The notes under the pieces are model-generated. The model was not told where the DNA came from. It saw only the letters and a program-made list of their open reading frames with translations, and did not search any database. 64,000 nucleotides of DNA from Acidobacteriota bacterium (GTDB taxonomy: Bacteria > Acidobacteriota > UBA6911 > RPQK01 > CBDEGM01), in the NCBI GenBank assembly GCA_965237715.1, contig CBDEGM010000002.1, forward strand, positions 67,234 to 131,233, read 5' to 3'. The number at the start of each line of letters is the position of its first letter. Position 1 is the stretch's first letter. Shown piece by piece: positions 289-62,672 of this stretch. A program made the translations under genes and the position numbers.

Positions 289-557
289 GTGTCCTGTCCC
301 AGGAATAACATCTTATTTGTTACGGGCGAAACGGATTCTGATTCGAGGCGCGACGACGAGTCGATGCCTGGGCATCGGCGAGGAGGAGCAACAAAGAAGC
401 AGGGCCGTTGGGCCCGCAACCCGAAGGGCGGAGGGAACTTTGGCCGATCTCTTTGTCGCTCGTCGTGGACGATGCCTTGGCATCGCCTTCTCCTCGCTTC
501 GCGATCTCGGCTCAAAGTTCCCTCCGCAAATGACATGTTATTCCTGGGACAGGACAC
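289..557. repeat. MITE-like element, family 1 copy A (269 bp) with perfect 23-bp terminal inverted repeats gtgtcctgtcccaggaataacat
   Basis: 289-311 is the exact reverse complement of 535-557. The internal core is a long imperfect palindrome (gcgacgacgagtcgatgcc...ggcatcg...cgtcgtcg) and is about 85% identical to the core of the element at 53575-53849 in the opposite orientation. It sits between the TonB receptor stop codon and the btuF-like start. Confidence 0.7.
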
Positions 558-2695
558 TAGAATCGGAAACGAAGACCGGAACGGAAGTGAAATTTCAGGG
601 CCGGGAATCCGATTTTCTCAAAATATTCCTGATTCAGAAGATTCTCAAAAGTGGCAACGAGCTCCAGGTTGTGATTGAGTCGGTAGCTGCCAGAAAGATC
701 CCATCTGGTGTAGCCATCCACCTCCGTCAGTTCGGTGCGAAAGTCACTGTCAGCGCGATTGCCAACGAAGGTTGCCCGGGTACTTACCGTCCATTTGTCG
801 GAGAGGAAGGTGAGACCTGCAAAACCGGAGTGGGTGGGACGGAGAGGGAGGCGGCCGCCTTCCCGAAACACCGGATCAAAGGGACTACTATTCACTATGG
901 TTGAGTGCAGGTAGGTGTATCCTGCGAAAAAACGCAAGTCTTCCCGGGGAAGGATGTGAAACACGTTCTCAACACCCCATGCCTGGCTCTCGATGATGTT
1001 GAAAAACGATCCTTCGAAGGTATTCAAGTCGACAATCTCAAACGCGATCAGGTCGTCAAAGCGATTGTGGAAGAAATTCACTTCAGCGCGTACCCGATCG
1101 CTGGCCAATGTCTGTTCGACTCCTGCCTCTATGCTTCTGGTTCGCTCCGGTTTCAGGTCGGGGTTCCCTCTGAAAAAAAAGTTTGGGCTAAAGGACTCAA
1201 TAAAGTTTGGCTCCTTGATTCCCAGACCGAAGTGGAACTTGGGCCGGGTCATTCCCCAGAACTCACCCTCCTGACCCCTTTTGGCAAGAAACGACAGGGA
1301 GACTCTCGGAGTGGCCGCAAACCCAAAGCTGCCGTTATCTTCCAATCGAAGTCCGCCGGTGATTGCCAATCGGTGAGTCAGGAGAAATTGATCCTGGACG
1401 TAATATCCGAGGTTCGTGCGGCGCTTGCGCACGTCCCCGACCACGCCCTGCTGCTCTTCGTACTCGAATCCTGTAGAAAGCTGGTGGCTGTGGATCAGAA
1501 AATCACTCTGGTAGTTTGTGTTGTGCCTCCGGGTAGCACTTAAAAAAGAGAACGGAAAATCGAATGGGTGGCTGAACTCGGGATCCTCCGAGAGTTGGTT
1601 GATGTAGGAATGGCTGTAAGAAACCTTCTGCTGCCAGCTATCGGAGATGCGGTGGTTCCAGGCCAAACCCAGGACGAGGTCTCGTTTGCGGTAGAATTCT
1701 TCCAGGTCGGGCGGACCCAATGCTGTTGGGCCGGGCGCTCCAGACCTGCCGCGTTCGGCTCGTCCTACAAAGTTTAGAGAAGAGTTGGCGGAGATTGTGA
1801 TGCCGATATTGGAACTGTAGCTATTGTTTCGGAAAAAATCGTTGGGGCCGCTATTGTCCGTGCGGAAGTGCTGAAACGCAGCACTGTAGGACACTCGATC
1901 ATGCTGACCGGCAATGGTTGCTCCTCCACGGAAGGTGTCAAAGGTACCCCCTTCCAGGAACACACTTCCGGCAGGGATGGATGTTTCTGCGGCTCCTTTC
2001 TTCGTAAAGATCTGGATCACGCTGGTGATGGCATCGGAGCCATAGAGGGCGCTTTGCGGCCCCCGGACGATCTCGATTCTCTCTACATTGGCCGTGGAGA
2101 GACTGGAAAGATCTACTGAACCTCCCGGTTGATTCAACGGGACCCCGTCGAGCAATACCTTGTTGTAATCAGACTCTCCTCCTCGGACGAAAATGCTGGT
2201 GAGAGAACCCGCAGCTCCATACTGGAGGATGTTTACACTCGGTGAGTTTCGCAGAAGTTCGGCTACATTGGTCGCATTCTGCGCTTCAATCTCATCGGCA
2301 CTGATCACGGTGACACTGCTGCCGAGAGAGCTTGTGTGTGCCTCGGTTCGGGTGGCCGTCACCAAGACCTCTTCTCTCAGCAATTCCATTTTGAGAGCAA
2401 AATCGTGTTCAAGATCCTGGCCTGATTCCAGGCGAAATTCCTGGCCATACTGCCGAAGGCCGAGTTCCCGAATCAGAATCAGGTAAGTGCCGGGTGCCAC
2501 GTCCTTGAAAGAATAATGGCCGCTCTCATCGGTTAGTGTCGTAGCACGCGTCCCGTTGCCCTCGATCAAGAGAAGGCGGACCCCAGAAACGAAGTTCCCA
2601 TCTGGATCTATAAGTTTTCCCGAGATCGACTCGCAAAAAACGGGAAAACAGCACAGAGTAAGAGCTGCGATGAGAGTGGTCACCATGAGCAGCAT
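557..2695 (-). CDS. TonB-dependent outer-membrane receptor with an N-terminal carboxypeptidase-regulatory-like domain (BtuB-like by context)
   Basis: 712 aa with a signal peptide and a CarboxypepD_reg-like segment (YSFKDVAPGTYLILIRELG). Plug-domain motifs are present (VTATRTE..., RGGESDYNKVLLDGVPLN) and the protein ends in an aromatic residue (FRF). A cobalamin riboswitch lies upstream. Confidence 0.85.
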   Translation of the reverse strand: MLLMVTTLIAALTLCCFPVFCESISGKLIDPDGNFVSGVRLLLIEGNGTRATTLTDESGHYSFKDVAPGTYLILIRELGLRQYGQEFRLESGQDLEHDFALKMELLREEVLVTATRTEAHTSSLGSSVTVISADEIEAQNATNVAELLRNSPSVNILQYGAAGSLTSIFVRGGESDYNKVLLDGVPLNQPGGSVDLSSLSTANVERIEIVRGPQSALYGSDAITSVIQIFTKKGAAETSIPAGSVFLEGGTFDTFRGGATIAGQHDRVSYSAAFQHFRTDNSGPNDFFRNNSYSSNIGITISANSSLNFVGRAERGRSGAPGPTALGPPDLEEFYRKRDLVLGLAWNHRISDSWQQKVSYSHSYINQLSEDPEFSHPFDFPFSFLSATRRHNTNYQSDFLIHSHQLSTGFEYEEQQGVVGDVRKRRTNLGYYVQDQFLLTHRLAITGGLRLEDNGSFGFAATPRVSLSFLAKRGQEGEFWGMTRPKFHFGLGIKEPNFIESFSPNFFFRGNPDLKPERTRSIEAGVEQTLASDRVRAEVNFFHNRFDDLIAFEIVDLNTFEGSFFNIIESQAWGVENVFHILPREDLRFFAGYTYLHSTIVNSSPFDPVFREGGRLPLRPTHSGFAGLTFLSDKWTVSTRATFVGNRADSDFRTELTEVDGYTRWDLSGSYRLNHNLELVATFENLLNQEYFEKIGFPALKFHFRSGLRFRF

Positions 2696-2799
2696 AGGCC
2701 CTCCTGGGTACAGAGCAGCCCAAAACGGCGCCAGTCGGGTTGAAAGGAAAAAACCAAGACCCTGAACCCCTTTTTGACGCGAAGAGTTACGGGTAGACT

Positions 2800-2975
2800 G
2801 CCAAGGCAGGTTTCCTGACTAACGGCTCAAACTCGGCCTTCCCAGCCTTCCCCCCGAGATTCCGGGAGTGACTAGCGGTTCGAGACCACCTTGGAAGGTC
2901 GCTTGCCGATCACAGTGACGCGATCGTGTGGGATTCTCACCCACTTCCCTTTTGTGTTCGCACCCTGGCTAACAG
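2800..2975 (-). ncRNA. Cobalamin (B12) riboswitch in the 5' leader of the TonB receptor gene
   Basis: On the minus strand the sequence reads ...AAGGGAAGUGGGUGAGAAUCCCAC...GUCACUGUGAUCGG...GGGAAGGCC...GUUAGUCAGGAAACCUGCC. This matches the conserved GGGAA/GGUG..AA.UCC, GCCACUGUGA-like and B12-box (AGUCAGGAAnCCUGCC) blocks of RF00174-type elements. A U-rich stretch follows before the ATG at 2695. Confidence 0.65.
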
Positions 2976-2989
2976 ACTGAGGATACTTT

Positions 2990-3100
2990 AGTCAGTGGTC
3001 AATGGTCAATGGTTGCAACTGACAAACTGTAACAAAGTAGATGATTCAGTGGTGAGCTGGTCAACCGGTGGTTACTGGTCACCGGTCAGCTCGTCATCGG
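2990..3100. repeat. Heptanucleotide tandem array (TCAGTGG/TCAATGG/TGACAAA... units) upstream of the riboswitch
   Basis: gtcagtggtcaatggtcaatggttgcaactgacaaactgtaac...ggttactggtcaccggtcagctcgtcatcggtagtgg shows 7-bp periodicity of TCAnTGG/CTGACnn units. The same unit occurs at 18306-18370, 21211-21270 and 45262-45350. Confidence 0.5.
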
Positions 3101-3555
3101 TAGTGGAAGTTGCGGTGGCGGAGAGTACTACCAGAAGAGGAGAACTACTTCCCTCCCAGGCTTTGTGTTTCCCCTTCTGGTAGTCTCTTTTTTTACCCGT
3201 CATCTTCGAACTGCAAATGAGCGGGTGAGTTCCCGGGGAGTTGGTTGACTAACCCATGGGACTCACCAGTTCTTTAGCAATTTCGATGCCTCTCCAGGTC
3301 AACTCTACGCAACTGAAATCCGATCAATCAGTTATAGGAATCTGTTTGGGTTGGCATTGGGTTCCAAATTCAAAAAAATGATGGGTCGTAGATGAGACGC
3401 TCCATCTTTCTGGTTTTTCTTGGAGATGAGGTTCAAGAAGATGAATTGTTGAGAGCCGGAGTGATGAAGGTATGGACACCTGTCTCGCGGCCGTTGAAGG
3501 TTGCCGTTGAGCTTTGATTTTCTTGGTTCTGTCGATCGTTTAGCCCTGGCCAGAT

Positions 3556-4134: not shown

Positions 4135-5225
4135 CTGCTGAGCGAATCGATGAAACTCGGGCCCAGGCTCTTCCTCTGTTCGGGTGGCTCGATCTTTACC
4201 CTCCCTCGTTCATCTCGGACCCTCAACTCAGGTCGAACCGGAGCACCAGATAGGAGTCGATCCACGACCTGCGCAATATCAGGGTATACCGCCAGGCGTT
4301 CGCGGCTTTGGATCTCCACCAGGATGTCAAACGTGGGAGGTGCCTTGCGCTCCAGGATTGTCTTCTGTGTGCCTCTGCGCCGGGCCTCCTCATCCGACAA
4401 GGTGACCGCCTGAATGCCACCCAGAAGGTCCGATAGGGTGGGATTGATGAGCAGGTTCTGAAGTGTGATTCCATGTGCCGTGGCCACAAGTTGGACTCCG
4501 CGCTCGGCAATCGTGCGAGCCGCAAGGGATTCGGCAAGAGTTCCGATTTCGTCGATGACGATCACTTCGGGCATGTGGTTTTCCACAGCCTCAATCATCA
4601 CCTGATGTTGAAGCTCCGGAGAGGGAACTTGCATGCGCCTTGCGCAACCGATTCCGGAATGGGAAATGTCGCCATCACCAGCGATTTCGTTTGACGTATC
4701 TACTACCACCACCCGTTTTTCCAGTTCCTCAGCCAGAACCCGAGCTGCCTCACGAAGGAGGGTGGTCTTACCGACACCGGGAGGGCCAAGAAGCAACAGG
4801 CTACTCCCCTTCTCAACTACATCACGGATGATCTCGACAGTTCCGGTCACCGCGCGTCCCACTCGACAGGTCAGACCGATAATTTTCCTGCGCCGGTTTC
4901 GAATCGCGCTAATACGGTGGAGTGTTCGCTCCATTCCGGCGCGGTTATCAGCTGTGAAATCGCCGACGCGTGCAATCACGTAATCCAGGTCTTCGCGGAG
5001 GATCTCGGAATGGTTCAGGTAGAGTGCCCGGTCGAAAAACCTCGCCTCCGGCTGGCGTCCCAGGTCCATAATCACCTCGATCAAGTTGTCCAGCTGGGCT
5101 TCGTTTTCGAGGACGACGCGAAGCTTCGGTGGAAGTACCTGCAGAAGCAGGGATAAATCGTCGGTAACTTCCTGGCGACCCAAAGCTCGCTTCTGGCGGG
5201 ATCTGCGCTCCACTTGCAGCACCAT
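4038..5225 (-). CDS. AAA-family ATPase, Ycf45/SpoIIIAA-like
   Basis: 395 aa. Walker A is GPPGVGKTT and Walker B is VIVIDEIG. Overall it resembles the ATPase core of Ycf45-type R3H ATPases. Confidence 0.6.
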   Translation of the reverse strand: MVLQVERRSRQKRALGRQEVTDDLSLLLQVLPPKLRVVLENEAQLDNLIEVIMDLGRQPEARFFDRALYLNHSEILREDLDYVIARVGDFTADNRAGMERTLHRISAIRNRRRKIIGLTCRVGRAVTGTVEIIRDVVEKGSSLLLLGPPGVGKTTLLREAARVLAEELEKRVVVVDTSNEIAGDGDISHSGIGCARRMQVPSPELQHQVMIEAVENHMPEVIVIDEIGTLAESLAARTIAERGVQLVATAHGITLQNLLINPTLSDLLGGIQAVTLSDEEARRRGTQKTILERKAPPTFDILVEIQSRERLAVYPDIAQVVDRLLSGAPVRPELRVRDERGRVKIEPPEQRKSLGPSFIDSLSRCRGSGTIDSLAPTQVNARPESGLLPTLADDA

Positions 5226-6219: not shown

Positions 6220-7551
6220 ATGAAGCTTTTCCGCGAGATCGGTCTGACATCTTCCTTTTTTCTAGTCATCGGGAATACGGTCGGAATTGGTATTTTTACC
6301 ACCTCCGGGTTGATTGCAGAGGAGCTGGGAAATTCCGTATGGCTGATTGCGGTGTGGGTTTTGGGTGGGGTGCTCGCCTTCATCGGCGCCGTTTGCTATT
6401 CCGTACTGGGAGTCCGCATCCCAAAAGCGGGAGGCGAGTATGCATTTCTCTATCCTTCCTACGGCCGCCTCCCTGCCTTCCTGTCCGGTTGGACTTCACT
6501 TCTGATCGGCTTTTCAGCACCCATCGCAGCCGCGGCTCTGGGTCTGGTCCACTACCTGCGTCCCTTCATTCCTGTGGAGGTCTCCGGGCCAGCGTGGACT
6601 CTGAAGGCAGTGGCCATGCTGGTCTTGCTGAGTGTGACCATTTTGCTCTCTCTGGGCCTCAAGTCTGGAGCTCGAGCCCATTCCCTGATTACGGTCGTGA
6701 ACTTCGCTGTGATGATCGTATTCGCGCTGCTAGTCCTTAGGCGCTCGGCAGGGGAACAAAACCTCGGCTTGACCTTGCAGCACGGTCTTTTTGATGTGCA
6801 CCCGTCTTCGTTGGGATCGGCGGTTGTCTTGGTGATGTTCGCCTACAGCGGATGGAATGCGGCTGCCTATATCGCCGAAGAAATCCGGGCTCCCGAACGG
6901 ACGATTCCACGGGCCCTGATCCTCGGGACGTTGGCGGTCATTGCAGCCTATCTTTCCATCAACTTTGCATATTTTTCAGCAGTACCAGTGGATCAGCTGA
7001 AAGGTAAGATCGCCGTGGCGGAAATCGCCGCCTCGGCAACCTTGGGAAATATGGGGCCAAGTCTGATCAGCGTGCTCATTGCGATCTCCATACTGAGCTC
7101 ACTGACTGCCATGTCCATTGCCGGTCCAAGAGTCTATTTTGCGATGTCGCGTGATCGGTTGTTTCCCAGGTGGATGGGTGAGATCCACCGAAAGAAGAAG
7201 GTACCTCTGAAATCCATCTGGTTTCAAAGCGGTGTGGCCGCAGGACTGATCGCGCTGGGAAACTTCTATCAGATTTTGCTTTATTCGGGCTTTATTCTAC
7301 TGCTTTTTGCAACCCTGACCGTCTCGACTCTGTTGACGGTAAGAAGAAAAGAGGGAGAATTATTCTGGTTCTGGACTCTGTACCGTCTCCTACCCGGCAT
7401 TTTTGTCGTTGCCAACAGCGGAGTTCTTATCAGCACAGTCTTCTCACATCCGGCGGAGACTCTTACCGGCCTGGCAACGGTGGCACTGGGCCTGCCAGTG
7501 TACCTGTATTACAGGAGGACCTCCACTTCCACCTCCACTGGTGGAAGTTGA
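6220..7551 (+). CDS. APC-superfamily amino acid permease
   Basis: 443 aa with 12 predicted hydrophobic segments. The N-terminal motif FLVIGNTVGIGIFTTSG is typical of APC transporters. Confidence 0.8.
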   Translation: MKLFREIGLTSSFFLVIGNTVGIGIFTTSGLIAEELGNSVWLIAVWVLGGVLAFIGAVCYSVLGVRIPKAGGEYAFLYPSYGRLPAFLSGWTSLLIGFSAPIAAAALGLVHYLRPFIPVEVSGPAWTLKAVAMLVLLSVTILLSLGLKSGARAHSLITVVNFAVMIVFALLVLRRSAGEQNLGLTLQHGLFDVHPSSLGSAVVLVMFAYSGWNAAAYIAEEIRAPERTIPRALILGTLAVIAAYLSINFAYFSAVPVDQLKGKIAVAEIAASATLGNMGPSLISVLIAISILSSLTAMSIAGPRVYFAMSRDRLFPRWMGEIHRKKKVPLKSIWFQSGVAAGLIALGNFYQILLYSGFILLLFATLTVSTLLTVRRKEGELFWFWTLYRLLPGIFVVANSGVLISTVFSHPAETLTGLATVALGLPVYLYYRRTSTSTSTGGS

Positions 7552-7612
7552 CGGATCATTTCTTCACTTCGCTCAGGTGAAGGCGACGCCGTTGTAGTAG
7601 AGGTGGTGTGAG
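7534..7612. repeat. Partial copy (left half, inverted) of MITE family 2
   Basis: gatcatttcttcacttcgctcaggtgaaggcgacgccg...gagaaatgcgg is the reverse complement of the conserved core ...cggcgtcgccttcacctgagcgaagtgaagaaatcatcc found at 25798-26030 and 41083-41290. Confidence 0.5.
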
Positions 7613-7629
7613 AAATGCGGGTTAATAAC

Positions 7630-8860: not shown

Positions 8861-10295
8861 GAGACTGTCTCGGGTTTAGTTGAAAGTTGAGAGGCGGTTC
8901 GTCCGACCGACTCGTTAGAATCGGGTTGGTCAACAACCTTTTAAGGAGGAACCGCCATGAAGAAATCATATCGAATTGTCACCCGGAAGAACAGTCAGGG
9001 GCTGGCTGATTATCTGGCCCAGAACGGGCAACTGTTGCTCCCGATGGTGGAGCTGATCGAAGCCTCCCGGATGGCCATTGACGAGTTGATCGACATCCTG
9101 GGGCGAGCGAGCATGGAAGCGGTCTTGCAGCTTTCTGCCCGAAGTGTCGCCGGCGAAAAGCAACAAGGGCGCCCAGGCAAGCAGGTCGTTTGGTACGGCA
9201 CTCAGCCAGGGCGAGTCAGACTTTCGGAGCGGCAAGTGCGGGTTCGAAAGCCACGGCTGCGCAAGAAAGGCCAAGGTCGAGGCGGGGAGGTGGAGATCCC
9301 CGCCTATGAGGCGATCAACCGTAACGGGGAGCTGGGCAGCCGCATGCTGGAGATCTTGATGTGCAACGTTTCCACGCGCCACTACAGCCGCGTGATCCCC
9401 CAGATGGCCGACACGGTGGGAGTCAGCAAATCGTCCGTGAGCCGTCAGTTCATTGAGCAGAGCGGCCAGCAGCTGGAGCAGCTGGCCGAGCGACACTTTG
9501 ATGACGTTGAGTTTCTGATCATCTACATCGACGGCCTGGTCTTTGGCGAGCACCACGTGATCTGTGCCGCCGGCGTGGACTCGGAGGGCCAAAAGCACGT
9601 GCTGGGGCTGCGGGAAGGGGCCAGTGAAAACGCCGCCACCGCTACCTCCTTGCTGGAAGACCTGGTGGAGCGAGGCCTGGATTCCGGGCGACGCTATCTG
9701 TTTGTGATTGACGGCTCCAGGGCCCTGCGATGTGCCATTGACAAGGTCTTTGGCAAGGGCAGTCCGGTGCAGAGATGTCGTCGTCATAAGATTCGCAACG
9801 TGTGCGATCGATTGCCGGACGATCTGGCCGAGCAAGTCAAGTCAGTGATGCAGGCTGCTTATCGGCTGCCCTGGGAAGAAGGGAGGGTTCGGCTCAGAAA
9901 GCAGGCGGAGTGGCTCGAAGGGCTGCATCCCGATGCGGCAGCTAGCCTGCGAGAAGGTCTGGAAGAGACCTTCACCATCAATCGACTCGAGTTGTCTTCC
10001 TCCCTGCGCTTGTGTCTGGCCAGCACCAACCTGATTGAAAGCCCTCACTCTGGCGTGAGGATGCGGACCCGCCGAGTGAGCCGCTGGAAAGATAGCCAGA
10101 TGGTGCTGCGCTGGGCCGCCTCAGCCTTCCTGGAGACGGAGAAGAACTTCCGGCGCATCCAGGGCTACCAGGACCTCTGGATGCTGAAAGCCAAACTCAG
10201 AGACGAGGTTTCTATGGACGCCAAACGAAAGGTGGCTTAAGATCGTGCTCAACCTGAACCGCCCTTCACTTTCAACTGAGTTTGGGGCAGCCTCC
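8861..10295 (+). mobile_element. IS256-family insertion sequence, copy 1 (1435 bp), with an 8-bp target duplication tagaaaat
   Basis: Imperfect terminal inverted repeats: gagactgtctcgggtttagttgaaagttgagagg at one end and ggaggctgccccaaactcagttgaaagtgaaggg (reverse complement) at the other. Direct repeats tagaaaat at 8853-8860 and 10296-10303. It sits inside IS1380 copy A. Confidence 0.85.
8957..10240 (+). CDS. IS256-family (Mutator-type) DDE transposase
   Basis: 427 aa with the IS256 transposase architecture. It is more than 99% identical to the ORFs at 21334-22617 and 27012-28295. Confidence 0.85.
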   Translation: MKKSYRIVTRKNSQGLADYLAQNGQLLLPMVELIEASRMAIDELIDILGRASMEAVLQLSARSVAGEKQQGRPGKQVVWYGTQPGRVRLSERQVRVRKPRLRKKGQGRGGEVEIPAYEAINRNGELGSRMLEILMCNVSTRHYSRVIPQMADTVGVSKSSVSRQFIEQSGQQLEQLAERHFDDVEFLIIYIDGLVFGEHHVICAAGVDSEGQKHVLGLREGASENAATATSLLEDLVERGLDSGRRYLFVIDGSRALRCAIDKVFGKGSPVQRCRRHKIRNVCDRLPDDLAEQVKSVMQAAYRLPWEEGRVRLRKQAEWLEGLHPDAAASLREGLEETFTINRLELSSSLRLCLASTNLIESPHSGVRMRTRRVSRWKDSQMVLRWAASAFLETEKNFRRIQGYQDLWMLKAKLRDEVSMDAKRKVA

Positions 10296-17048: not shown

Positions 17049-18305
17049 TCAGTGCACGGTCTTTGTTTTCTTGGACATAAAATCCATTAGGATGTAATTG
17101 GCGAGGTTCATGCTCGTGGTGAAGTAGGCCTTCCCTCGGCAGATTTCCGTGACCTTTTTGATGAAATCTACCAAATAGTAATCGCGGGCCAGCATGAAGG
17201 TATTGACTAAGATGTCGGCCTTGCGGCAGTAGGTGACCTCCTTGTAGGTTTCCTGCAAGATGATAGGGTCCAGGCCAAATGGATTCTTGTAGATTCTCCC
17301 ATTGGGCAGGGTGACTGCGGAAGGTTTTCCGTCGGTGATCATGATGATTTGACGCATGTCCTTCTTTTGCTTCAAGAGAAGACGCCGCGAAAGCCGCAAA
17401 CCCTCACAGGTGTTCGTGTGGTAGGGCCCCACCTTAACGGAGGGAAGCTTCCCCAGTGGGATCTCTTCGGAAGAGTCATGGAAAAGCACGACCTGCAAGG
17501 AATCGCCGGGGAACTGCGTTCGGATAAGGTGGGCCAGTGCAAGTGCCACTTTCTTAGCGGGAGTAAAGCGGTCCTCACCGTAAAGAATCATGCTGTGGCT
17601 GCAGTCGAGCATCAGAACCGTTGCGCACGAACTCTGATACTCGGACTGATAAACCATCAGATCGTTATACTCCAGGCTGATGGGTACGCCCACGCCTTCG
17701 CGTTTCACTGCATTCATCAAGGTGGCGCTGATGTCAAGATTAAGAACGTCGCCGAATTCGTAGGGCCGGCTGTGGGCGTCGGTCTCTACCCCGGTAGAAA
17801 GTTCGCGAGCCTCATGGAGGCCGAAACTACTGCGTCCCAGAGAGCCCATTAGTTCCCGCAGGGTCTTATAGCCCAGGAAATCGATACTCTTGTCGGTTAG
17901 CTCAAAACGAATGTTGTGCAACGGCTCGCGCTCTCTTGCAGAGCCTTGGGTACCAGGTCCTGATTCCTCTTCCTGCGAGGCCCGCAGATAGCCTTCGTCG
18001 ATCAGACGATGGATCAGCTGATCGAAGAAATCCCTGATCTCATCCGGCAATTCTGATTCCGGAAGGTCTTCCAGGTACTCCTCTAAAGCGTCGCGCCATT
18101 CCTGTGTGAGGTGTTCGCTCTCTGCCAGGATTTCTGCGAGAGTCTGATACAGATTCTCCAGATTTTGTTCAGATCGCTGGTATGGAGAAAACTGTGAATA
18201 GAAACCACTTTCTAGAAAAAAGTTTTTGAGCTGGCTCAAGAGAGAGCCCAAGTCTATCTGATTCAACGGGTTGGGTACGTATTTTCTGTAGCGAACCTTG
18301 GCCAT
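17049..18305 (-). CDS. VWA-domain protein (ChlD/CoxE-like C-terminal von Willebrand A domain)
   Basis: The VWA MIDAS region is MLDCSHSM...ITDGKPSA. It lies downstream of a ChlI-like ATPase. The likely ATG start is at 18303-18305 (MAKVRYRKY); the track ORF begins at a GTG at 18353. Confidence 0.6.
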
Positions 18306-18370
18306 GGAATCACCACTGACCACTGACACGACTGATAACCGAGAACTGACCACTGAGAATTGACCATGAA
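18306..18370. repeat. Heptanucleotide (GTGGTCA / CAGTGGT) array directly upstream of the VWA gene start
   Basis: tcatggtcaattctcagtggtcagttctcggttatcagtcgtgtcagtggtcagtggtgattcc precedes the ATG; read on the minus strand. Confidence 0.5.
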
Positions 18371-18572
18371 ATGGCCCTATTGGATAGCTTCGCCAGTCAT
18401 CCTTTGTCAGTTGAAACTCTTCTTCTGCTCGGGGAAGTCTTCGTAGTATTCCCCGTCCCGCTTCTCGGCTACCTTGTAGTAGCCTTTCTTTTCGCTGCGG
18501 TTCAGCTTCTTCTGGGTGTAGAGTCCCTCCAGGATCAGCTCAATGATAGAAATTGTTGTCTCAAGGTTCTTT

Positions 18573-19829
18573 TTAAAGGGAACTCCCAACTGGCGTACCT
18601 CGGGCCGGCGTTTGATCGGTGACCTTGACTTGCCCGCCCAAATTGAACCACTGAACAATCCGGTCAAAATCCCCGTTGGGAAAACGCTTGACAAAGGCAT
18701 TGAGGACGGAGGCTTCGATGAGTTCCCTGGCCACGTTTTCTTCACCCCGAAGCTGACCTTCGTATTCCATTTCCAGCTTTCCGGTGATGGCAGTGATGGA
18801 AGCGTAGATATCCGCAATGCGCAAGACCACTTTCTTCTCTCTAGCCAGCGTGGCTCTACGTTCAGCGTTGCTGATAGTATTTTCCAGGCAAGAAATGGGA
18901 ACACGTTGGCTAATCCCTGAGCGCTTGTCAATGCGGGAGTCCTGGCGTCCGTGGAAGGCGATACCTTCCACAACCTCCCGGATATACTCGGGGATCAATA
19001 GCTCCTTGTTCAGTTTTCGGTTGGTCCAAGACTCCTGAAGGGTGATACGGATGCCTTCATCCAGGCGATGGGGGTAGTGTGTCTTGATCTCCGAACCGAT
19101 TCGGTCTTTCAGGGGGGTGATGATTTTTCCACGTGCCGTGTAATCTTCCGGGTTAGCCGAGAAAACCAATAGGATGTCTAGCGGCAGACGGATGGGAAAC
19201 CCCTTAATCTGGACGTCGCCTTCCTGCATGATGTTGAAAAGGCTGACTTGAATCTTAGGAGCCAGATCAGGGAGCTCGTTCATCGCAAAGATGCCTCGGT
19301 GGGCGCGGGGCAGAAGACCAAAGTGGATGTTCTCATGAGCGGAAAGATCCCTCCCCTTTTTGGCTGCTTTGATGGGGTCTAGATCGCCGATCGTGTCGGC
19401 GATGGTGACATCCGGGGTCGCGAGCTTCTCCACATAGCGCTCCTCGCGGGAAAGATAGGCGATTGGTAAATCGTCTCCAGCTTCCCTGGTCAGCCTCCGG
19501 CAGGTGGCACAGACGGGGAAGAAGGGATCGTCATGAATTTCACACCCTCCAATATAAGGGATCTCCTCATCCAGGAATTGCGTCAAGGCTCGCAGAATGC
19601 GACTCTTAGCCTGCCCGCGAAGGCCTAGAAAGATCATATGGTGTCTGGAGAGCAGAGCGTTGATGATTCTAGGGATGACGGAATCATCGTAGCCCAAGAT
19701 TCCCGGGAACAAGTGCTCCTTTTGCTTCAACTTCAGAAGCAGGTTTTGGCGAATCTCGTCCTTAACGGAATGGAATGAAGCAGGTGCTCCTTTTTCTCTT
19801 TTCAGTTCTCCCAGGGTGGCGGGTTTCAT
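18573..19829 (-). CDS. Mg-chelatase ChlI/BchI-like AAA+ ATPase. Its C-terminus may continue in another frame to about 18410
   Basis: The Walker A variant GLRGQAKS is ChlI-like (GxRGTGKS). Sensor motifs ANPEDYTARGKIITPLKDRIG are present. The in-frame end ...VTDQTPARGTPVGSSL looks degenerate. The +1 frame downstream encodes a clean Lys/Glu-rich tail ...LGVPFKKNLETTISIIELILEGLYTQKKLNRSEKKGYYKVAEKRDGEYYEDFPEQKKSFN. Confidence 0.55.
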   Translation of the reverse strand: MKPATLGELKREKGAPASFHSVKDEIRQNLLLKLKQKEHLFPGILGYDDSVIPRIINALLSRHHMIFLGLRGQAKSRILRALTQFLDEEIPYIGGCEIHDDPFFPVCATCRRLTREAGDDLPIAYLSREERYVEKLATPDVTIADTIGDLDPIKAAKKGRDLSAHENIHFGLLPRAHRGIFAMNELPDLAPKIQVSLFNIMQEGDVQIKGFPIRLPLDILLVFSANPEDYTARGKIITPLKDRIGSEIKTHYPHRLDEGIRITLQESWTNRKLNKELLIPEYIREVVEGIAFHGRQDSRIDKRSGISQRVPISCLENTISNAERRATLAREKKVVLRIADIYASITAITGKLEMEYEGQLRGEENVARELIEASVLNAFVKRFPNGDFDRIVQWFNLGGQVKVTDQTPARGTPVGSSL

Positions 19830-19848: not shown

Positions 19849-21210
19849 TCACAGTTCCAAAATGCGTAAGATCTCGTCTTTGTCGGGTGGGACGACAATG
19901 GGCCTGTTGGCGTAGGTGGAGTTGAGCTTGCCCGACTTTTCCACCAGCACGTTCTCGTAAACGGCAGTTTGGTATAGGTTATCCAGGTGGTAGTTTACGG
20001 TGTACTCAGGATCCTTCAACTGGTGGCCTGTAAGGATCGCCACTACATCCTCATCCGGATCGATGGTTATCTCAGACCCGGAAGTCCGGCTCAGGGCCAA
20101 GAGTTTCTTCAAACCCGCAATCGTGGTAGCGGAGGCGGGCTCGCACCCGATTCCGTCACGACCCAGGACGGCCTTGGCGTCGGCAATCTCCTGCTCAGTG
20201 ACGACATCGCACCAGCCGTCGGTGAATTGCAGTGCGCGCATCGCCTTCTTCCAGCTAATGGGGCGACCAATCTTGATGGCGCTGGCCAGTGTCTGGGCAT
20301 CCGCAACCGGGACCAAATCCCGGGAACTGGTCACCAGTGTCCGGTAAAAGGGATCGGCGCCGCTTGCCTGGATGACGGTGATGCGAGGGATCTTTTCGAT
20401 CAACCCCAGTTCTTTGAGCTCACTGAAGGCCTTTCCGTAGGAGGAGCTGTTGCCCAGGTTGCCGCCCGGCACCACTATCCGGTCCGGCACCCGCCAATCA
20501 AGCTGATCCAAAAGCTCTATCATCACGGTTTTCTGCCCCTCCAGCCGGAAAGGATTGATGGAGTTCATGAGATAGAGGTCCTTTTCGCTGGAGAGCTCCC
20601 GCACCAATCGCATCGCCACGTCGAAATCGCCCTGGATCTGAAGGGTCAGGGCCCCATAATCAAGTGCCTGAGACAATTTTCCATAGGCAATCTGGCCTTC
20701 CGGAATAAAGACCACGGCACGGATATTGGTTCGTGCACAATAAGCGGCCATTGAGGCAGAAGTATTGCCGGTGGAAGCACAGCCGACCGCCCGAGAGCCG
20801 AGTTTTCCAGCTTGAGCAATGGCCACGGTCATCCCATAGTCCTTGAAGGAGCCGCTGGGATTCCACCCCAGGTGCTTGACCTTGAGCTGCGTCAGACCAG
20901 CATGCTCGGCACTGCGGGGAGCGGAGAGAAGTGGATTGTTCCCCTCTCCCAGGGTGACCACCCAGTCCAGATCCTCTTCGCGAAAGGGCAGAAGCTCGCG
21001 GTAGCGCCAGACACCGCTCAGGTCGAGGTTGTGGTTGGATAAACGCCGCTGGCGGAAGGTCTTTTTGAGTTTTGCTGGGTCGAAGTGGGGAAAGCGATAG
21101 TCGATGTCCAAAAGATCCAGACAGGCCGGACATTGATAGAGTTTGTGGGTGATCTCGAATTCTTTCTGGCAGGACTCACTGATACAGCGGAAGTAGAATC
21201 GATCAGTCAT
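19849..21210 (-). CDS. thrC: Threonine synthase (long form with an N-terminal zinc-ribbon)
   Basis: 453 aa with an N-terminal CQKEF...CPAC zinc-ribbon, a PLP-binding lysine region SFKDYGMTV, and GCASTGNTSAS. Confidence 0.85.
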   Translation of the reverse strand: MTDRFYFRCISESCQKEFEITHKLYQCPACLDLLDIDYRFPHFDPAKLKKTFRQRRLSNHNLDLSGVWRYRELLPFREEDLDWVVTLGEGNNPLLSAPRSAEHAGLTQLKVKHLGWNPSGSFKDYGMTVAIAQAGKLGSRAVGCASTGNTSASMAAYCARTNIRAVVFIPEGQIAYGKLSQALDYGALTLQIQGDFDVAMRLVRELSSEKDLYLMNSINPFRLEGQKTVMIELLDQLDWRVPDRIVVPGGNLGNSSSYGKAFSELKELGLIEKIPRITVIQASGADPFYRTLVTSSRDLVPVADAQTLASAIKIGRPISWKKAMRALQFTDGWCDVVTEQEIADAKAVLGRDGIGCEPASATTIAGLKKLLALSRTSGSEITIDPDEDVVAILTGHQLKDPEYTVNYHLDNLYQTAVYENVLVEKSGKLNSTYANRPIVVPPDKDEILRILEL

Positions 21211-21270
21211 TGGTCATTGGTCACTGGTCACTGGTCATTCGTCATTTGTCAATGGTTACAGGTTCCCGGT
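21211..21270. repeat. Ten tandem heptamers (TCATTGG/TCACTGG... on the plus strand, CCAATGA/CCAGTGA on the coding strand) abutting and including the thrC ATG
   Basis: cat tggtcat tggtcac tggtcac tggtcat tcgtcat ttgtcaa tggttac aggttcc cggttcc cgg. The thrC start codon is the ATG of the last CCAATGA unit. Confidence 0.6.
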
Positions 21271-21279
21271 TCCCGGCTC

Positions 21280-22713
21280 GAGGCTGCCCCAAACTCAGTT
21301 GAAAGTGAAGGGCGGTTCAGGTTGAGCACGATCTTAAGCCACCTTTCGTTTGGCGTCCATAGAAACCTCGTCTCTGAGTTTGGCTTTCAGCATCCAGAGG
21401 TCCTGGTAGCCCTGGATGCGCCGGAAGTTCTTCTCCGTCTCCAGGAAGGCTGAGGCGACCCAGCGCAGCACCATCTGGCTATCTTTCCAGCGGCTCACTC
21501 GGCGGGTCCGCATCCTCACGCCAGAGTGAGGGCTTTCAATCAGGTTGGTGCTGGCCAGACACAAGCGCAGGGAGGAAGACAACTCGAGTCGATTGATGGT
21601 GAAGGTCTCTTCCAGACCTTCTCGCAGGCTAGCTGCCGCATCGGGATGCAGCCCTTCGAGCCACTCCGCCTGCTTTCTGAGCCGAACCCTCCCTTCTTCC
21701 CAGGGCAGCCGATAAGCAGCCTGCATCACTGACTTGACTTGCTCGGCCAGATCGTCCGGCAATCGATCGCACACGTTGCGAATCTTATGACGACGACATC
21801 TCTGCACCGGACTGCCCTTGCCAAAGACCTTGTCAATGGCACATCGCAGGGCCCTGGAGCCGTCAATCACAAACAGATAGCGTCGCCCGGAATCCAGGCC
21901 TCGCTCCACCAGGTCTTCCAGCAAGGAGGTAGCGGTGGCGGCGTTTTCACTGGCCCCTTCCCGCAGCCCCAGCACGTGCTTTTGGCCCTCCGAGTCCACG
22001 CCGGCGGCACAGATCACGTGGTGCTCGCCAAAGACCAGGCCGTCGATGTAGATGATCAGAAACTCAACGTCATCAAAGTGTCGCTCGGCCAGCTGCTCCA
22101 GCTGCTGGCCGCTCTGCTCAATGAACTGACGGCTCACGGACGATTTGCTGACTCCCACCGTGTCGGCCATCTGGGGGATCACGCGGCTGTAGTGGCGCGT
22201 GGAAACGTTGCACGTCAAGATCTCCAGCATGCGGCTGCCCAGCTCCCCGTTACGGTTGATCGCCTCATAGGCGGGGATCTCCACCTCCCCGCCTCGACCT
22301 TGGCCTTTCTTGCGCAGCCGTGGCTTTCGAACCCGCACTTGCCGCTCCGAAAGTCTGACTCGCCCTGGCTGAGTGCCGTACCAAACGACCTGCTTGCCTG
22401 GGCGCCCTTGTTGCTTTTCGCCGGCGACACTTCGGGCAGAAAGCTGCAAGACCGCTTCCATGCTCGCTCGCCCCAGGATGTCGATCAACTCGTCAATGGC
22501 CATCCGGGAGGCTTCGATCAGCTCCACCATCGGGAGCAACAGTTGCCCGTTCTGGGCCAGATAATCAGCCAGCCCCTGACTGTTCTTCCGGGTGACAATT
22601 CGATATGATTTCTTCATGGCGGTTCCTCCTTAAAAGGTTGTTGACCAACCCGATTCTAACGAGTCGGTCGGACGAACCGCCTCTCAACTTTCAACTAAAC
22701 CCGGGACAGTCTC
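21280..22713 (-). mobile_element. IS256-family copy 2 with a perfect 8-bp target duplication cccggctc
   Basis: Same termini as copy 1. Direct repeats at 21272-21279 and 22714-22721. Inserted between thrC and lutA. Confidence 0.85.
21334..22617 (-). CDS. IS256-family transposase (copy 2)
   Basis: 427 aa, differing at 2 residues from copy 1. Confidence 0.85.
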   Translation of the reverse strand: MKKSYRIVTRKNSQGLADYLAQNGQLLLPMVELIEASRMAIDELIDILGRASMEAVLQLSARSVAGEKQQGRPGKQVVWYGTQPGRVRLSERQVRVRKPRLRKKGQGRGGEVEIPAYEAINRNGELGSRMLEILTCNVSTRHYSRVIPQMADTVGVSKSSVSRQFIEQSGQQLEQLAERHFDDVEFLIIYIDGLVFGEHHVICAAGVDSEGQKHVLGLREGASENAATATSLLEDLVERGLDSGRRYLFVIDGSRALRCAIDKVFGKGSPVQRCRRHKIRNVCDRLPDDLAEQVKSVMQAAYRLPWEEGRVRLRKQAEWLEGLHPDAAASLREGLEETFTINRLELSSSLRLCLASTNLIESPHSGVRMRTRRVSRWKDSQMVLRWVASAFLETEKNFRRIQGYQDLWMLKAKLRDEVSMDAKRKVA

Positions 22714-22905
22714 CCCGGCTCTCTCCTGGAGGGTAAGGTGAAGACCCGAAAATCTGTAGTCGGAAGACTGGCCACCTGGTACCGGTGACCCATGACCGTT
22801 TTGGATCAATCCGCCATTCGGGGATACAGACCATTCATTTTACAAAGCGAAAGTGAGAATTTAAACTGACAGTGGATCTTTCCCGGAAAGGGGCAGCCAC
22901 CCGTT

Positions 22906-25797: not shown

Positions 25798-26030
25798 CTG
25801 ACCTGCATTTCTCATCACCCCCCTACTGCATCGGCGTCGCCTTCACCTGAGCGAAGTGAAGAAATCATCCGTCTGGACGGCGTTGCGCTCGTTCGGCCTC
25901 CTAGACTTACTGCGAGAGTACGCCTGCGGGGGCCTCGGTCGCGCCTTGTCCGGCCGGCCCTTCCGCCGCGTGACACGAGTGTCTTGACACGAGTGTCTCG
26001 TGACGAGCAGTGATGAGAAATGCAGGTCAG
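25798..26030. repeat. MITE-like element, family 2, with 21-bp perfect terminal inverted repeats ctgacctgcatttctcatcac
   Basis: 25798-25818 is the reverse complement of 26010-26030. The core ...ctactgcatcggcgtcgccttcacctgagcgaagtgaagaaatcatccgtc... is shared with 41083-41290 and partly with 7534-7612 and 43417-43598. It overlaps the stop codon of the downstream gene. Confidence 0.7.
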
Positions 26031-26818: not shown

Positions 26819-26910
26819 GATTTCTCTACCGCGACCGACACCCCTTAGCCCCAACGGGGCGGTATGAAATAGCCAGGGGCGTCAGCCCCTGGATTCGGGG
26901 ATCATCCCTT

Positions 26911-26956: not shown

Positions 26957-28391
26957 GGAGGCTGCCCCAAACTCAGTTGAAAGTGAAGGGCGGTTCAGGT
27001 TGAGCACGATCTTAAGCCACCTTTCGTTTGGCGTCCATAGAAACCTCGTCTCTGAGTTTGGCTTTCAGCATCCAGAGGTCCTGGTAGCCCTGGATGCGCC
27101 GGAAGTTCTTCTCCGTCTCCAGGAAGGCTGAGGCGGCCCAGCGCAGCACCATCTGGCTATCTTTCCAGCGGCTCACTCGGCGGGTCCGCATCCTCACGCC
27201 AGAGTGAGGGCTTTCAATCAGGTTGGTGCTGGCCAGACACAAGCGCAGGGAGGAAGACAACTCGAGTCGATTGATGGTGAAGGTCTCTTCCAGACCTTCT
27301 CGCAGGCTAGCTGCCGCATCGGGATGCAGCCCTTCGAGCCACTCCGCCTGCTTTCTGAGCCGAACCCTCCCTTCTTCCCAGGGCAGCCGATAAGCAGCCT
27401 GCATCACTGACTTGACTTGCTCGGCCAGATCGTCCGGCAATCGATCGCACACGTTGCGAATCTTATGACGACGACATCTCTGCACCGGACTGCCCTTGCC
27501 AAAGACCTTGTCAATGGCACATCGCAGGGCCCTGGAGCCGTCAATCACAAACAGATAGCGTCGCCCGGAATCCAGGCCTCGCTCCACCAGGTCTTCCAGC
27601 AAGGAGGTAGCGGTGGCGGCGTTTTCACTGGCCCCTTCCCGCAGCCCCAGCACGTGCTTTTGGCCCTCCGAGTCCACGCCGGCGGCACAGATCACGTGGT
27701 GCTCGCCAAAGACCAGGCCGTCGATGTAGATGATCAGAAACTCAACGTCATCAAAGTGTCGCTCGGCCAGCTGCTCCAGCTGCTGGCCGCTCTGCTCAAT
27801 GAACTGACGGCTCACGGACGATTTGCTGACTCCCGCCGTGTCGGCCATCTGGGGGATCACGCGGCTGTAGTGGCGCGTGGAAACGTTGCACATCAAGATC
27901 TCCAGCATGCGGCTGCCCAGCTCCCCGTTACGGTTGATCGCCTCATAGGCGGGGATCTCCACCTCCCCGCCTCGACCTTGGCCTTTCTTGCGCAGCCGTG
28001 GCTTTCGAATCCGCACTTGCCGCTCCGAAAGTCTGACTCGCCCTGGCTGAGTGCCGTACCAAACAATCTGCTTGCCTGGGCGCCCTTGTTGCTTTTCGCC
28101 GGCGACACTTCGGGCAGAAAGCTGCAAGACCGCTTCCATGCTCGCTCGCCCCAGGATGTCGATCAACTCGTCAATGGCCATCCGGGAGGCTTCGATCAGC
28201 TCCACCATCGGGAGCAACAGTTGCCCGTTCTGGGCCAGATAATCAGCCAGCCCCTGACTGTTCTTCCGGGTGACAATTCGATATGATTTCTTCATGGCGG
28301 TTCCTCCTTAAAAGGTTGTTGACCAACCCGATTCCAACGAGTCGGTCGGACGAACCGCCTCTCAACTTTCAACTAAACCCGGGACAGTCTC
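26957..28391 (-). mobile_element. IS256-family copy 3 (1435 bp) without a target-site duplication
   Basis: Identical termini, but the flanking 8-mers differ (gggcttgc vs tggtaggg). One side is a truncated MITE and the other is a truncated DUF1800 gene. Confidence 0.85.
27012..28295 (-). CDS. IS256-family transposase (copy 3)
   Basis: 427 aa with a few substitutions relative to copies 1 and 2. Confidence 0.85.
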   Translation of the reverse strand: MKKSYRIVTRKNSQGLADYLAQNGQLLLPMVELIEASRMAIDELIDILGRASMEAVLQLSARSVAGEKQQGRPGKQIVWYGTQPGRVRLSERQVRIRKPRLRKKGQGRGGEVEIPAYEAINRNGELGSRMLEILMCNVSTRHYSRVIPQMADTAGVSKSSVSRQFIEQSGQQLEQLAERHFDDVEFLIIYIDGLVFGEHHVICAAGVDSEGQKHVLGLREGASENAATATSLLEDLVERGLDSGRRYLFVIDGSRALRCAIDKVFGKGSPVQRCRRHKIRNVCDRLPDDLAEQVKSVMQAAYRLPWEEGRVRLRKQAEWLEGLHPDAAASLREGLEETFTINRLELSSSLRLCLASTNLIESPHSGVRMRTRRVSRWKDSQMVLRWAASAFLETEKNFRRIQGYQDLWMLKAKLRDEVSMDAKRKVA

Positions 28392-41083: not shown

Positions 41084-41290
41084 TACTCCCTGCATTTCTC
41101 ATCACCCCTCTACTGCATCGGCGTCGCCTTCACCTGAGCGAAGTGAAGAAATCATCCGTCCTAACTGCGTTTCGCTCCGTCGGCCTCCTCGACGTACTGC
41201 ACGAGTACGCCTGCGGGGGCCTCGGTCGCGCGCCTTGTCAGGCCGGCTCTTCCGCCGCTTCGTGACGAGCGGTGATGAGAAATGCAGGTT
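41083..41290. repeat. MITE-like element, family 2, second copy (TIR cctgcatttctcatcac)
   Basis: 41083-41099 is the reverse complement of 41271-41287. The core matches the 25798-26030 copy. Confidence 0.65.
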
Positions 41291-43416: not shown

Positions 43417-43598
43417 AACTAGCCCGGATGATGCATAAGGTGTCGTAGCGAAGCGGCGAAAGTGCCGGCCTGAGAAGGCGTCGCGACCGAGGCCCCCGCA
43501 GGCGTACTCGTGCAGTACGTCGAGGAGGCCGACGGAGCGCAACGCAATCAGGACGGATGATTTCGCCGATGGAGTAGACACCTTATGCATCATCCGGG
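43417..43598. repeat. MITE-like element (182 bp) with 26-bp perfect terminal inverted repeats ctagcccggatgatgcataaggtgtc; its core is related to family 2
   Basis: 43417-43442 is the reverse complement of 43573-43598. The internal segment matches the right half of the 41083-41290 copy, inverted. It overlaps the 3' end of the D-aminoacylase gene. Confidence 0.65.
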
Positions 43599-45261: not shown

Positions 45262-45350
45262 ATAGCTGACCCTCTGACCGGCTGACCAGCTAACGGGCTG
45301 ACCTTATGTGGAAAGTGGTCAGCTGGTCAGGAGGTTAGCAGGTCAGTTTT
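45262..45350. repeat. Inverted array of CTGACC (x4) and GGTCAG (x5) hexamers, forming a long imperfect hairpin
   Basis: gctgaccctctgaccggctgaccagctaacgggctgacc ttatgtggaaagt ggtcagctggtcaggaggttagcaggtcag, located between the D-aminoacylase start and the GNAT gene end. Confidence 0.5.
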
Positions 45351-49174: not shown

Positions 49175-49271
49175 CGGCGGGGTCGCATAGCGGCCAATTG
49201 CACCCGACTCCAAATCGGGAGAGCCAGATAGACCCTAGCTCCGTGGGTTCGAATCCCACCCCCGCCGCCCA
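49175..49271 (+). tRNA. tRNA-like gene with a selenocysteine-tRNA/allo-tRNA-type fold (8-bp acceptor, 5-bp T arm, long variable arm) but a CCA (Trp) anticodon, with an encoded 3' CCA
   Basis: Acceptor CGGCGGGG/CCCCGCCG. D arm GCA..TGC with loop TAGCGGCCAAT. Anticodon stem CCCGA/TCGGG with loop CTCCAAA. Variable arm about 23 nt with a GAGC/GCTC stem. T arm GTGGG-TTCGAAT-CCCAC. Discriminator C followed by CCA. Confidence 0.55.
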
Positions 49272-61295: not shown

Positions 61296-61352
61296 GGTTC
61301 CTTTGTGTCTTAGTGGTTTCCGTTTTTTACCACAAAGACACTAAGACACCAA
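61296..61352. repeat. Copy of the ACCACAAAGACAC(C/T)AAGACACCAAG motif between the ABC ATPase and GT genes
   Basis: ctttgtgtcttagtggtttccgttttttaccacaaagacactaagacaccaagcc. Confidence 0.45.
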
Positions 61353-62635: not shown

Positions 62636-62672
62636 CTTGCTATCTTTGTCTCTTGGTGTCTTTGTGGTAAAA
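62636..62672. repeat. Inverted copy of the ACCACAAAGACACCAAGA motif in the divergent promoter region between the GT gene and the Fe-ADH gene
   Basis: ctatctttgtctcttggtgtctttgtggtaaaaac. Confidence 0.45.

Follow-up and report, generated by a model that had tools for sequence, protein, structure and literature searches.

Heptanucleotide tandem arrays in intergenic spacers of an uncultured Acidobacteriota bacterium, probably slippage-driven simple-sequence repeats

What does an array of seven-base units do at the start codon of a threonine synthase gene? We addressed this question in a 64-kb stretch of DNA, hereafter the window (the whole stretch that was analysed, GC 56%), which is part of a 1.39-Mb long-read contig. 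Tandem heptamers with a TGGTCA core stand there at the start of thrC, ahead of a VWA-domain gene and upstream of a cobalamin riboswitch. A preliminary description of the window had read them as contingency loci, in which changes in unit number would shift promoter spacing or translation initiation, or alternatively as binding sites for a TGACC-recognising regulator. The host is an uncultured member of the Acidobacteriota, as indicated by ThrC, whose closest database matches are metagenome-assembled genomes (MAGs) of this phylum (78-79% identity), and by an Acido-Lenti-1 RNA in the window. We conclude that the arrays are probably slippage-driven heptanucleotide simple-sequence repeats (SSRs) of the class of the STRRs (short tandemly repeated repetitive sequences) and heptamer long simple-sequence repeats (LSSRs), in an Acidobacteriota host.

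Repeats were called with Tandem Repeats Finder (TRF), and 100 dinucleotide-preserving shuffles of the window served as the null model. At a strict lag-7 threshold two arrays were detected in the window and none in the 100 shuffles. As this tandem structure is absent from the shuffles, the arrays are real, and heptamer tandem structure is far above chance. Five arrays with the TGGTCA core were found, and every window array lies in a spacer.

The thrC gene (threonine synthase, 453 aa, PALP domain; 19849-21210, minus strand) had been described as preceded by ten tandem 7-mers running into its ATG. This was a fair description: eleven consecutive in-register heptamers occupy 21203-21279, between the thrC start and the end of an insertion sequence (IS), and the ATG (21210-21208) lies within the first units. 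The units are, in order, TCAGTCA, TTGGTCA, TTGGTCA, CTGGTCA, CTGGTCA, TTCGTCA, TTTGTCA, ATGGTTA, CAGGTTC, CCGGTTC and CCGGCTC; seven units of TGGTCA type, (R/A)TGACCA on the thrC sense strand, shade into three of GGTTCCC type. TRF reported a period of 7 with 7.3 copies and 86% matches at 21206-21256, and 2.3 copies of GGTTCCC at 21261-21276. Mismatches between units rose from a mean of 1.4 for neighbours to 4.0 at a unit distance of 7, and at most four consecutive units share an identical core. Neighbouring units are thus most alike and diverge with distance, which is the signature of stepwise local duplication. The N-terminus of ThrC (MTD) is kept in close relatives; an in-frame TGA lies two codons upstream of the ATG, and TGA closes all three frames. 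Since the start context ATGACTGA is conserved in relatives that lack the array, the thrC array appears to have grown by tandem amplification of the start-codon heptamer, and such an amplification would explain why it appears fused to the ATG.

The IS, a 1434-bp element of the IS256/Mutator family (21280-22713, minus strand) flanked by an 8-bp target duplication (GAGCCGGG in thrC sense), has inserted into the array at its distal end; 62 nt separate it from the thrC ATG downstream, or 69 nt if the copy of the target duplication is counted. Its transposase is oriented as thrC, so read-through transcription from the IS into thrC is plausible. We looked for a relationship between the array and the IS ends and found none. 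Beyond the IS the native thrC leader resumes, with a degenerate array of about four units (CTGGCCA, CCTGGTA, CCGGTGA and CCCATGA; 22768-22798). Upstream of these units stands TTTAAA-17-TAAAAT (22865-22837, minus strand), a promoter-like site that is kept in the closest relative; this native site beyond the IS was the only promoter-like site found near thrC. A leader hairpin occluding the thrC ATG was also considered and rejected, the reconstructed pre-IS leader being no more stable than shuffles (z = -1.2). As a separate observation, the window holds three identical 1434-bp copies of this IS, each with 8-bp target duplications (8861-10294 on the plus strand, 21280-22713 and 26957-28391 on the minus strand), an identity that indicates recent transposition. 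The copy at 8861-10294 is inserted within another IS of DDE_Tnp_1_4 type, an intact copy of which lies at about 50644-52100, and one IS256-family copy ends at a distance of 65 nt from the Acido-Lenti-1 RNA (52 bits; 26847-26892, minus strand).

The second start-proximal array precedes the VWA-domain gene (418 aa; 17049-18305, minus strand), the start of which (18305-18303) matches both a 418-aa gene call in locus L001 and the starts of the orthologues. It comprises eight units at 18309-18366, one of them 9 nt long, which read TGGTCAA, TTCTCAG, TGGTCAG, TTCTCGG, TTATCAG, TCGTGTCAG, TGGTCAG and TGGTGAT on the sense strand and are followed by TCC and then the ATG. The array that had been announced is therefore present, but it ends 3 nt short of the ATG rather than at it. 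TRF detected it at 18312-18366 with a period of 7/14, 6.1 copies and 72% matches. With respect to the gene that follows, the units point in opposite directions at the two loci, with TGACCAN on the sense strand of thrC and TGGTCAN on that of the VWA gene. Between these genes lies an AAA/MoxR-like gene (18407-19829, minus strand) that is split into 418 and 60 aa and forms a single open reading frame (ORF) of 485-488 aa in relatives; similarly, a peptidase M19 gene following a sigma factor gene (L001, 12347-13320) consists of two 148-aa pieces, compared with about 400 aa in relatives. Either the frameshifts behind both splits are true, or the 12x long-read assembly contains 1-nt indel errors at these places; it is chiefly by such 1-nt indels that assemblies of related strains differ.

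The arrays reported ahead of the riboswitch and receptor at 2990-3100 were found as a proximal array of about three units (2986-3013; TTGACCA on the minus strand), directly upstream of the cobalamin riboswitch, and a looser distal one of about five TGACC-type units (3047-3100). The riboswitch (2788-2982, minus strand, 83 bits) precedes a gene for a TonB-dependent receptor (557-2695, minus strand). TRF assigned 3.3 copies of TGGTCAA with a period of 7 to 2991-3013. A promoter consensus search of the arrays gave a single match, in which a TTGACC unit ahead of the riboswitch serves as the -35 element; this match was not reproduced at the orthologous site of L211, another genome of the same sample, and arrays as promoters were rejected. 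Neither the arrays nor the 2983-3555 spacer contained a known RNA family, the only match, to mir-491, being spurious. In the same spacer we noted a hairpin of about 80 nt (CTACCAGAAGGGG...CTCTTCTGGTAG; 3125-3205, minus strand; 9520-9600 in L211), 110-190 nt upstream of the riboswitch, which is conserved in L211 with two compensatory pairs despite a different upstream neighbour gene. It is followed by a T7 tract on the plus strand and has no counterpart in Rfam. Possible identities are a small RNA and a terminator with an insulating role, moving together with the riboswitch-receptor unit.

The history of the arrays was read from orthologous sites. Syntenic thrC loci were compared in L075-78 (ThrC 92% identical), L079-80 (83%) and L081-84 (82%), and the riboswitch site in L211, whose TonB-dependent receptor is 85% identical. 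Upstream of thrC, L075 has one unit (CCATTGACCAATG) where the window has six (CCATTGAC AAATGAC GAATGAC CAGTGAC CAGTGAC CAATGAC CAATG), with homologous flanks. At the VWA gene, three units in L075 (TGCTCAG TTGTCAG TTGTAAT TCCATG) correspond to eight in the window. Ahead of the riboswitch, the proximal array of L211 is perfect, (GTTGTCA)2.6(TTGACCA)4.7, and counts about seven units, ending ten bases before the riboswitch, versus about three in the window, while the distal array has about five units in the window and a single one in L211. These differences at orthologous sites indicate that the arrays are orthologous and long-lived and that their copy number moves both ways: it drifts between lineages. 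The proposal that unit number is variable therefore stood for three orthologous sites of related genomes. L075, L076 and L077, consensus assemblies that different samples gave for one related strain, have identical heptamer arrays throughout although they differ by other indels. A search for a second assembly of the window's own strain, by exact-protein matches, returned only the window's contig. More distant relatives lack the motif ahead of these genes (L079, L081 and L085, 75-83% identity). In L079 and L081, thrC overlaps the upstream AhpC/TSA gene by an ATGA start/stop overlap and has no array, and the start context ATGACTGA is nevertheless conserved there; the thrC-upstream array was likewise absent from 73 thrC loci of other Acidobacteriota, in which the AhpC/TSA gene overlap is usual. 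Other short duplications were seen among near-identical assemblies. L085 (around 12813) and L086 differ by a 25-bp indel that is a tandem duplication unrelated to the heptamer arrays, and L082 differs from L081 and L083 at 15326 and 15842, by a tandem duplication of 8 bp (TGCAGAAG) and an indel of 14 bp; tandem duplications other than heptamers are thus polymorphic in these populations.

To what extent is this behaviour peculiar to the window? A period survey of 878 kb of non-redundant loci from related genomes, covering lags 4-13, gave 26 arrays at lag 7 and 0-11 at the other lags. With genes called crudely as longest ORFs, long ORFs left 17% of the DNA uncovered, and at least 20 of 28 arrays fell in this portion (p = 3e-10). 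Their spacers were tandem in nine cases, convergent in seven and divergent in three, and many arrays adjoin stop codons. JGI metagenomes were scanned for the exact pattern (TGGTCAN)3TGGTCA, and at least 120 stretches with (TGGTCAN)4 arrays, all from taxonomically unassigned contigs, matched. Among the matches listed, to which the metagenome figures refer, GC ranged from 0.33 to 0.70, and period-7 arrays (312, with up to 34.6 copies) compared with at most 28 for any other period. The TGGTCA arrays lay in 34 tandem, 8 divergent and 4 convergent spacers, for a background intergenic composition of 64%, 19% and 17%. No preference was seen for a type of spacer, in their orientation to the facing gene start (29 versus 21) or in their proximity, within 15 nt, to a start (15/50) as opposed to a stop (14/42). 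The expected enrichment at gene starts was accordingly not borne out, relatives and metagenome stretches showing no start or orientation bias.

The units themselves are not independent of one another. A set of 51 period-7 arrays from 985 kb contained 110 pairs that matched within one mismatch, against 22.6 +/- 4.5 expected. YTGGAAC arrays were present in nine genomes or more, and on two other contigs of the window's MAG; the GGTTCCC units at thrC are similar to this family. An additional 42 kb of this MAG, reached via multicopy transposases, held YTGGAAC and TCTTTGTG arrays and no further TGGTCA arrays.

Heptamer repeats of several kinds are known. STRRs are described as 7-bp intergenic repeats of cyanobacteria that sometimes form hairpins between genes and whose function is unknown (Mazel et al. 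1990, as presented in PMC2670836 and PMC4692102). The window arrays resemble them in that tandem 7-bp units are found in intergenic regions of many loci, in several families shared among related species and in some cases as hairpins. They differ in that the host is a member of the Acidobacteriota and not a heterocystous cyanobacterium, that the arrays are imperfect and only 3-11 units long, and that period-8 relatives co-occur; the host alone places them outside the STRRs in the strict sense, that is STRR1-3 of heterocyst-forming cyanobacteria. The unit of STRR2 in Calothrix is reportedly TTGGTCA, which would make it identical to a unit of the window. Heptamer SSRs are over-represented in many bacteria, and polymerase slippage favoured by a 7-nt contact has been proposed, according to later accounts of this work (Mrazek, Guo and Shah 2007, in PMC4679880 and PMC4692102). 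The GGGAATC repeats of Xanthomonas are intergenic, differ in length between close species and occur as inverted pairs (Rehm et al., PMC4692102). As far as these sources describe them, such LSSRs and the GGGAATC/GGGGAYT repeats of Xanthomonas and Nostoc share with the window arrays a period-7 excess, an intergenic location, variation of length and sequence between close genomes and inverted pairs. Unlike the GGGAATC/GGGGAYT repeats, the window unit is not G-rich, and the G-quadruplex idea is therefore inapplicable. The papers that we consulted on heptanucleotide LSSRs contain no mention of Acidobacteriota. The TAACTGA repeats of marine Beggiatoaceae, some cyanobacteria and Bacteroidetes, for which a binder of single-stranded nucleic acid at sites just upstream of start codons was proposed (MacGregor 2015, PMC4679880), are similar in their scattered distribution, a stop-containing unit and their position only a few nucleotides from starts without a Shine-Dalgarno sequence. 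Their unit is a different one, however, and they lie mostly in one orientation directly 5' of starts, whereas the arrays of the window, relatives and metagenomes have no preference for starts or orientation.

On these grounds we favour slippage. The arrays have the features of heptanucleotide SSRs and STRR-like repeats: at least three tandem units, non-coding location, dispersal with a period-7 excess and varying copy number. Intergenic restriction, local seeding and wide distribution are all observed. Slipped-strand mispairing at replication would create the arrays and alter their length, each growing from a short seed of local sequence; the candidate seed at thrC is the ancestral start context ATGACTGA/TTGACCAATG, and that of the riboswitch array a -35-like TTGACC heptamer. 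Because a 7-nt unit would break reading frames, arrays would persist only in non-coding spacers, and the shortness of spacers in this genome would account for their frequent ending at a start or stop codon. Most of them are likely to be neutral or nearly so, with possible side effects such as longer leaders, out-of-frame ATG/TGA mini-ORFs and inverted-pair hairpins that may stabilise or terminate transcripts.

Several observations weigh against slippage as the whole explanation. Unit families (YTGGAAC, TGACCNN/TGGTCA) recur at non-orthologous sites across species, and pure slippage from random seeds does not explain such sharing, nor does it explain a unit of 7 rather than 5, 8 or 10 nt. The STRR families of cyanobacteria pose this puzzle too. 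The retention of arrays at the same sites across 85-92% protein identity could also reflect function, no array length variation was seen within a population in the consensus assemblies of a related strain, and the context statistics of relatives and metagenomes depend on the crude gene calls mentioned above. If a small set of heptamer families (TGGTCA, YTGGAAC) were actively propagated or maintained across the clade or more widely, by a copying mechanism or by a single-strand nucleic-acid binder acting on leaders and intercistronic RNA of genes without Shine-Dalgarno sequences, both the cross-species families and the 7-nt preference would be accounted for; we consider this very unlikely.

The idea of contingency or expression-tuning loci, in which frequent gain or loss of units would alter leader length, promoter-start spacing or mini-ORFs and thereby switch or grade the expression of thrC, the VWA operon and the B12 receptor, takes its model from hmw of Haemophilus. 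In Haemophilus influenzae the expression of hmw1A/hmw2A is modulated by heptanucleotide SSRs that lie about 100 bp upstream, and a gene for a TonB-dependent receptor has an AACAACC tract 13 bp upstream of it (PMC2651432). The parallel extends to the location of repeats upstream of genes, a TonB-dependent receptor gene included, and to unit number, which varies between strains in Haemophilus (PMC2651432) and between related genomes at all three orthologous sites here; moreover, two of our arrays end at starts without an obvious Shine-Dalgarno sequence. However, in Haemophilus the tracts are long (13-38 units), perfect and variable between strains, and they are associated with surface proteins of a host-adapted pathogen (PMC2651432), whereas those of the window are short and imperfect (86% and 72% matches), which lowers slippage rates, and adjoin housekeeping and metabolic genes of a free-living environmental organism. 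Two to three assemblies of one related strain carry identical arrays despite other indels, and like arrays stand beside stop codons and in convergent spacers without any rule of orientation. At the riboswitch the extra units lie upstream of the -35-like unit, so the spacing there would remain unchanged. We therefore regard the contingency reading of the preliminary description as unlikely. Its second proposal can be widened to binding sites for a TGACC/GGTCA regulator or nucleoid protein, or for a single-strand RNA or DNA binder (Csp-, S1- or CsrA-like) on leaders and intercistronic RNA. This would fit with a TGGTCA core that is kept while the seventh base varies, with five arrays of this core in 64 kb and with unit families that are common across species far above expectation, and translational regulators have been suggested for heptamer repeats just 5' of starts (MacGregor 2015, PMC4679880). 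But contiguous 7-bp spacing amounts to a rotation of about 240 degrees on duplex DNA, unlike the phased direct repeats of 10-11 bp, and the positions range from overlapping an ATG, to upstream of a -35-like site, to after a gene, with inconsistent orientation. The same genes lack the motif in slightly more distant relatives (75-83% identity), the thrC units drift gradually into a different unit, which is unexpected under selection for one motif, and no candidate protein was found. A direct-repeat operator of heptamers of SARP or OmpR type, characterised by 10-11-bp phasing, a fixed promoter position and conservation in orthologues, was rejected, none of these features being present. Altogether a binding-site function appears improbable to us, although a binder of single-stranded DNA or RNA is conceivable.

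A third possibility concerns inverted pairs, which could act as REP/STRR-like (REP, repetitive extragenic palindromic) hairpins that stabilise 3' ends, terminate or insulate, the direct arrays then being half-elements or precursors. The inverted CTGACC/GGTCAG arrays that had been described as a hairpin of 7-mers at 45 kb are indeed inverted and foldable, but their period according to TRF is 8 and not 7: five copies of CTGACCNN (45265-45303) and four of GGTCAGNN (45317-45346) form a long interrupted hairpin at 45265-45346, with a fold z of -4.7 to -4.8 on both strands. The pair is located between the stop of a GNAT gene (45408) and the promoter-like TTGTCA-17-CATAAT (45245-45217) of a D-aminoacylase gene (43583-45190, minus strand). 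Inverted heptamer pairs were also found between convergent genes in the relatives L006, L005 and L074, and hairpins of STRRs between hupS and hupL have been discussed as transcript stabilisers (PMC2670836). On the other hand, an intrinsic terminator was tried and rejected, as there was no terminator-like match and no T-tract follows the hairpin on the transcribed (minus) strand. The arrays at thrC, the VWA gene and the riboswitch are direct repeats without a nearby partner, and the pre-IS thrC leader folds like shuffles. In the orthologous GNAT-aminoacylase spacer of a 75%-identical relative (L085/L086) the CTGACC hairpin is missing and an unrelated palindromic element is found instead. A structural role is plausible for the 45.3-kb pair, and unlikely as an explanation of the arrays in general.

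The arrays reveal no new regulatory device; they represent a new host for a known repeat class and extend the heptamer puzzle to the Acidobacteriota. Why bacteria prefer 7-nt tandem repeats with few shared units has been an open question since STRRs were described in 1990. The present case offers an Acidobacteriota example with a clear before and after, one array apparently arising from a start-codon context and one from a -35-like heptamer, and the reciprocal expansions in sister genomes make the slippage model concrete and supply defined constructs for expression tests. For annotation, such arrays may mimic upstream ATGs or extended ORFs, attract IS insertions and break short-read assemblies.

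Other repeats and RNA features were noted in the course of this work. Inverted period-8 arrays, CACAAAGA and TCTTTGTG (61300-61360 and 62636-62666), flank a glycosyltransferase gene (61341-62627, minus strand), one being hairpin-like at the 3' end of the gene and the other lying 9 nt upstream of its ATG; the TCTTTGTG 8-mer array recurs on another contig of the MAG (L090, 17965-17988). Dispersed intergenic repeats of 72-143 nt, 88-96% identical and present in both orientations (7550-7622, 25801-25944, 41089-41231 and 43482-43564), look like a family of miniature inverted-repeat transposable elements or of REP-type elements. At comparable places in related genomes the palindromic elements are different ones (GCGGAATCC...GGATTCCGC in L075 and GCCGCAGGCTTTAGCCTGCGGG in L085). 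In L211 a long array at 4488-4860 with 9/18/36/54-nt periodicity (GGAGCAGCGGGAGCCACG...) lies inside a 341-aa ORF that encodes a collagen-like Gly-X-Y repeat protein. The only tRNA of the window (49175-49271, plus strand, 97 nt, anticodon CCA), located in a region rich in mobile elements, was called tRNA-Trp by ARAGORN and scored 54.6 bits with the Rfam tRNA model. Its variable arm of about 22 nt and apparent 9-bp acceptor stem (GCGGCGGGG/CCCCGCCGC) are abnormal for tRNA-Trp. These features recall the 'allo-tRNAs' with 8/4 or 9/3 acceptor/T-stems that Mukai reportedly described in Acidobacteria in 2017.

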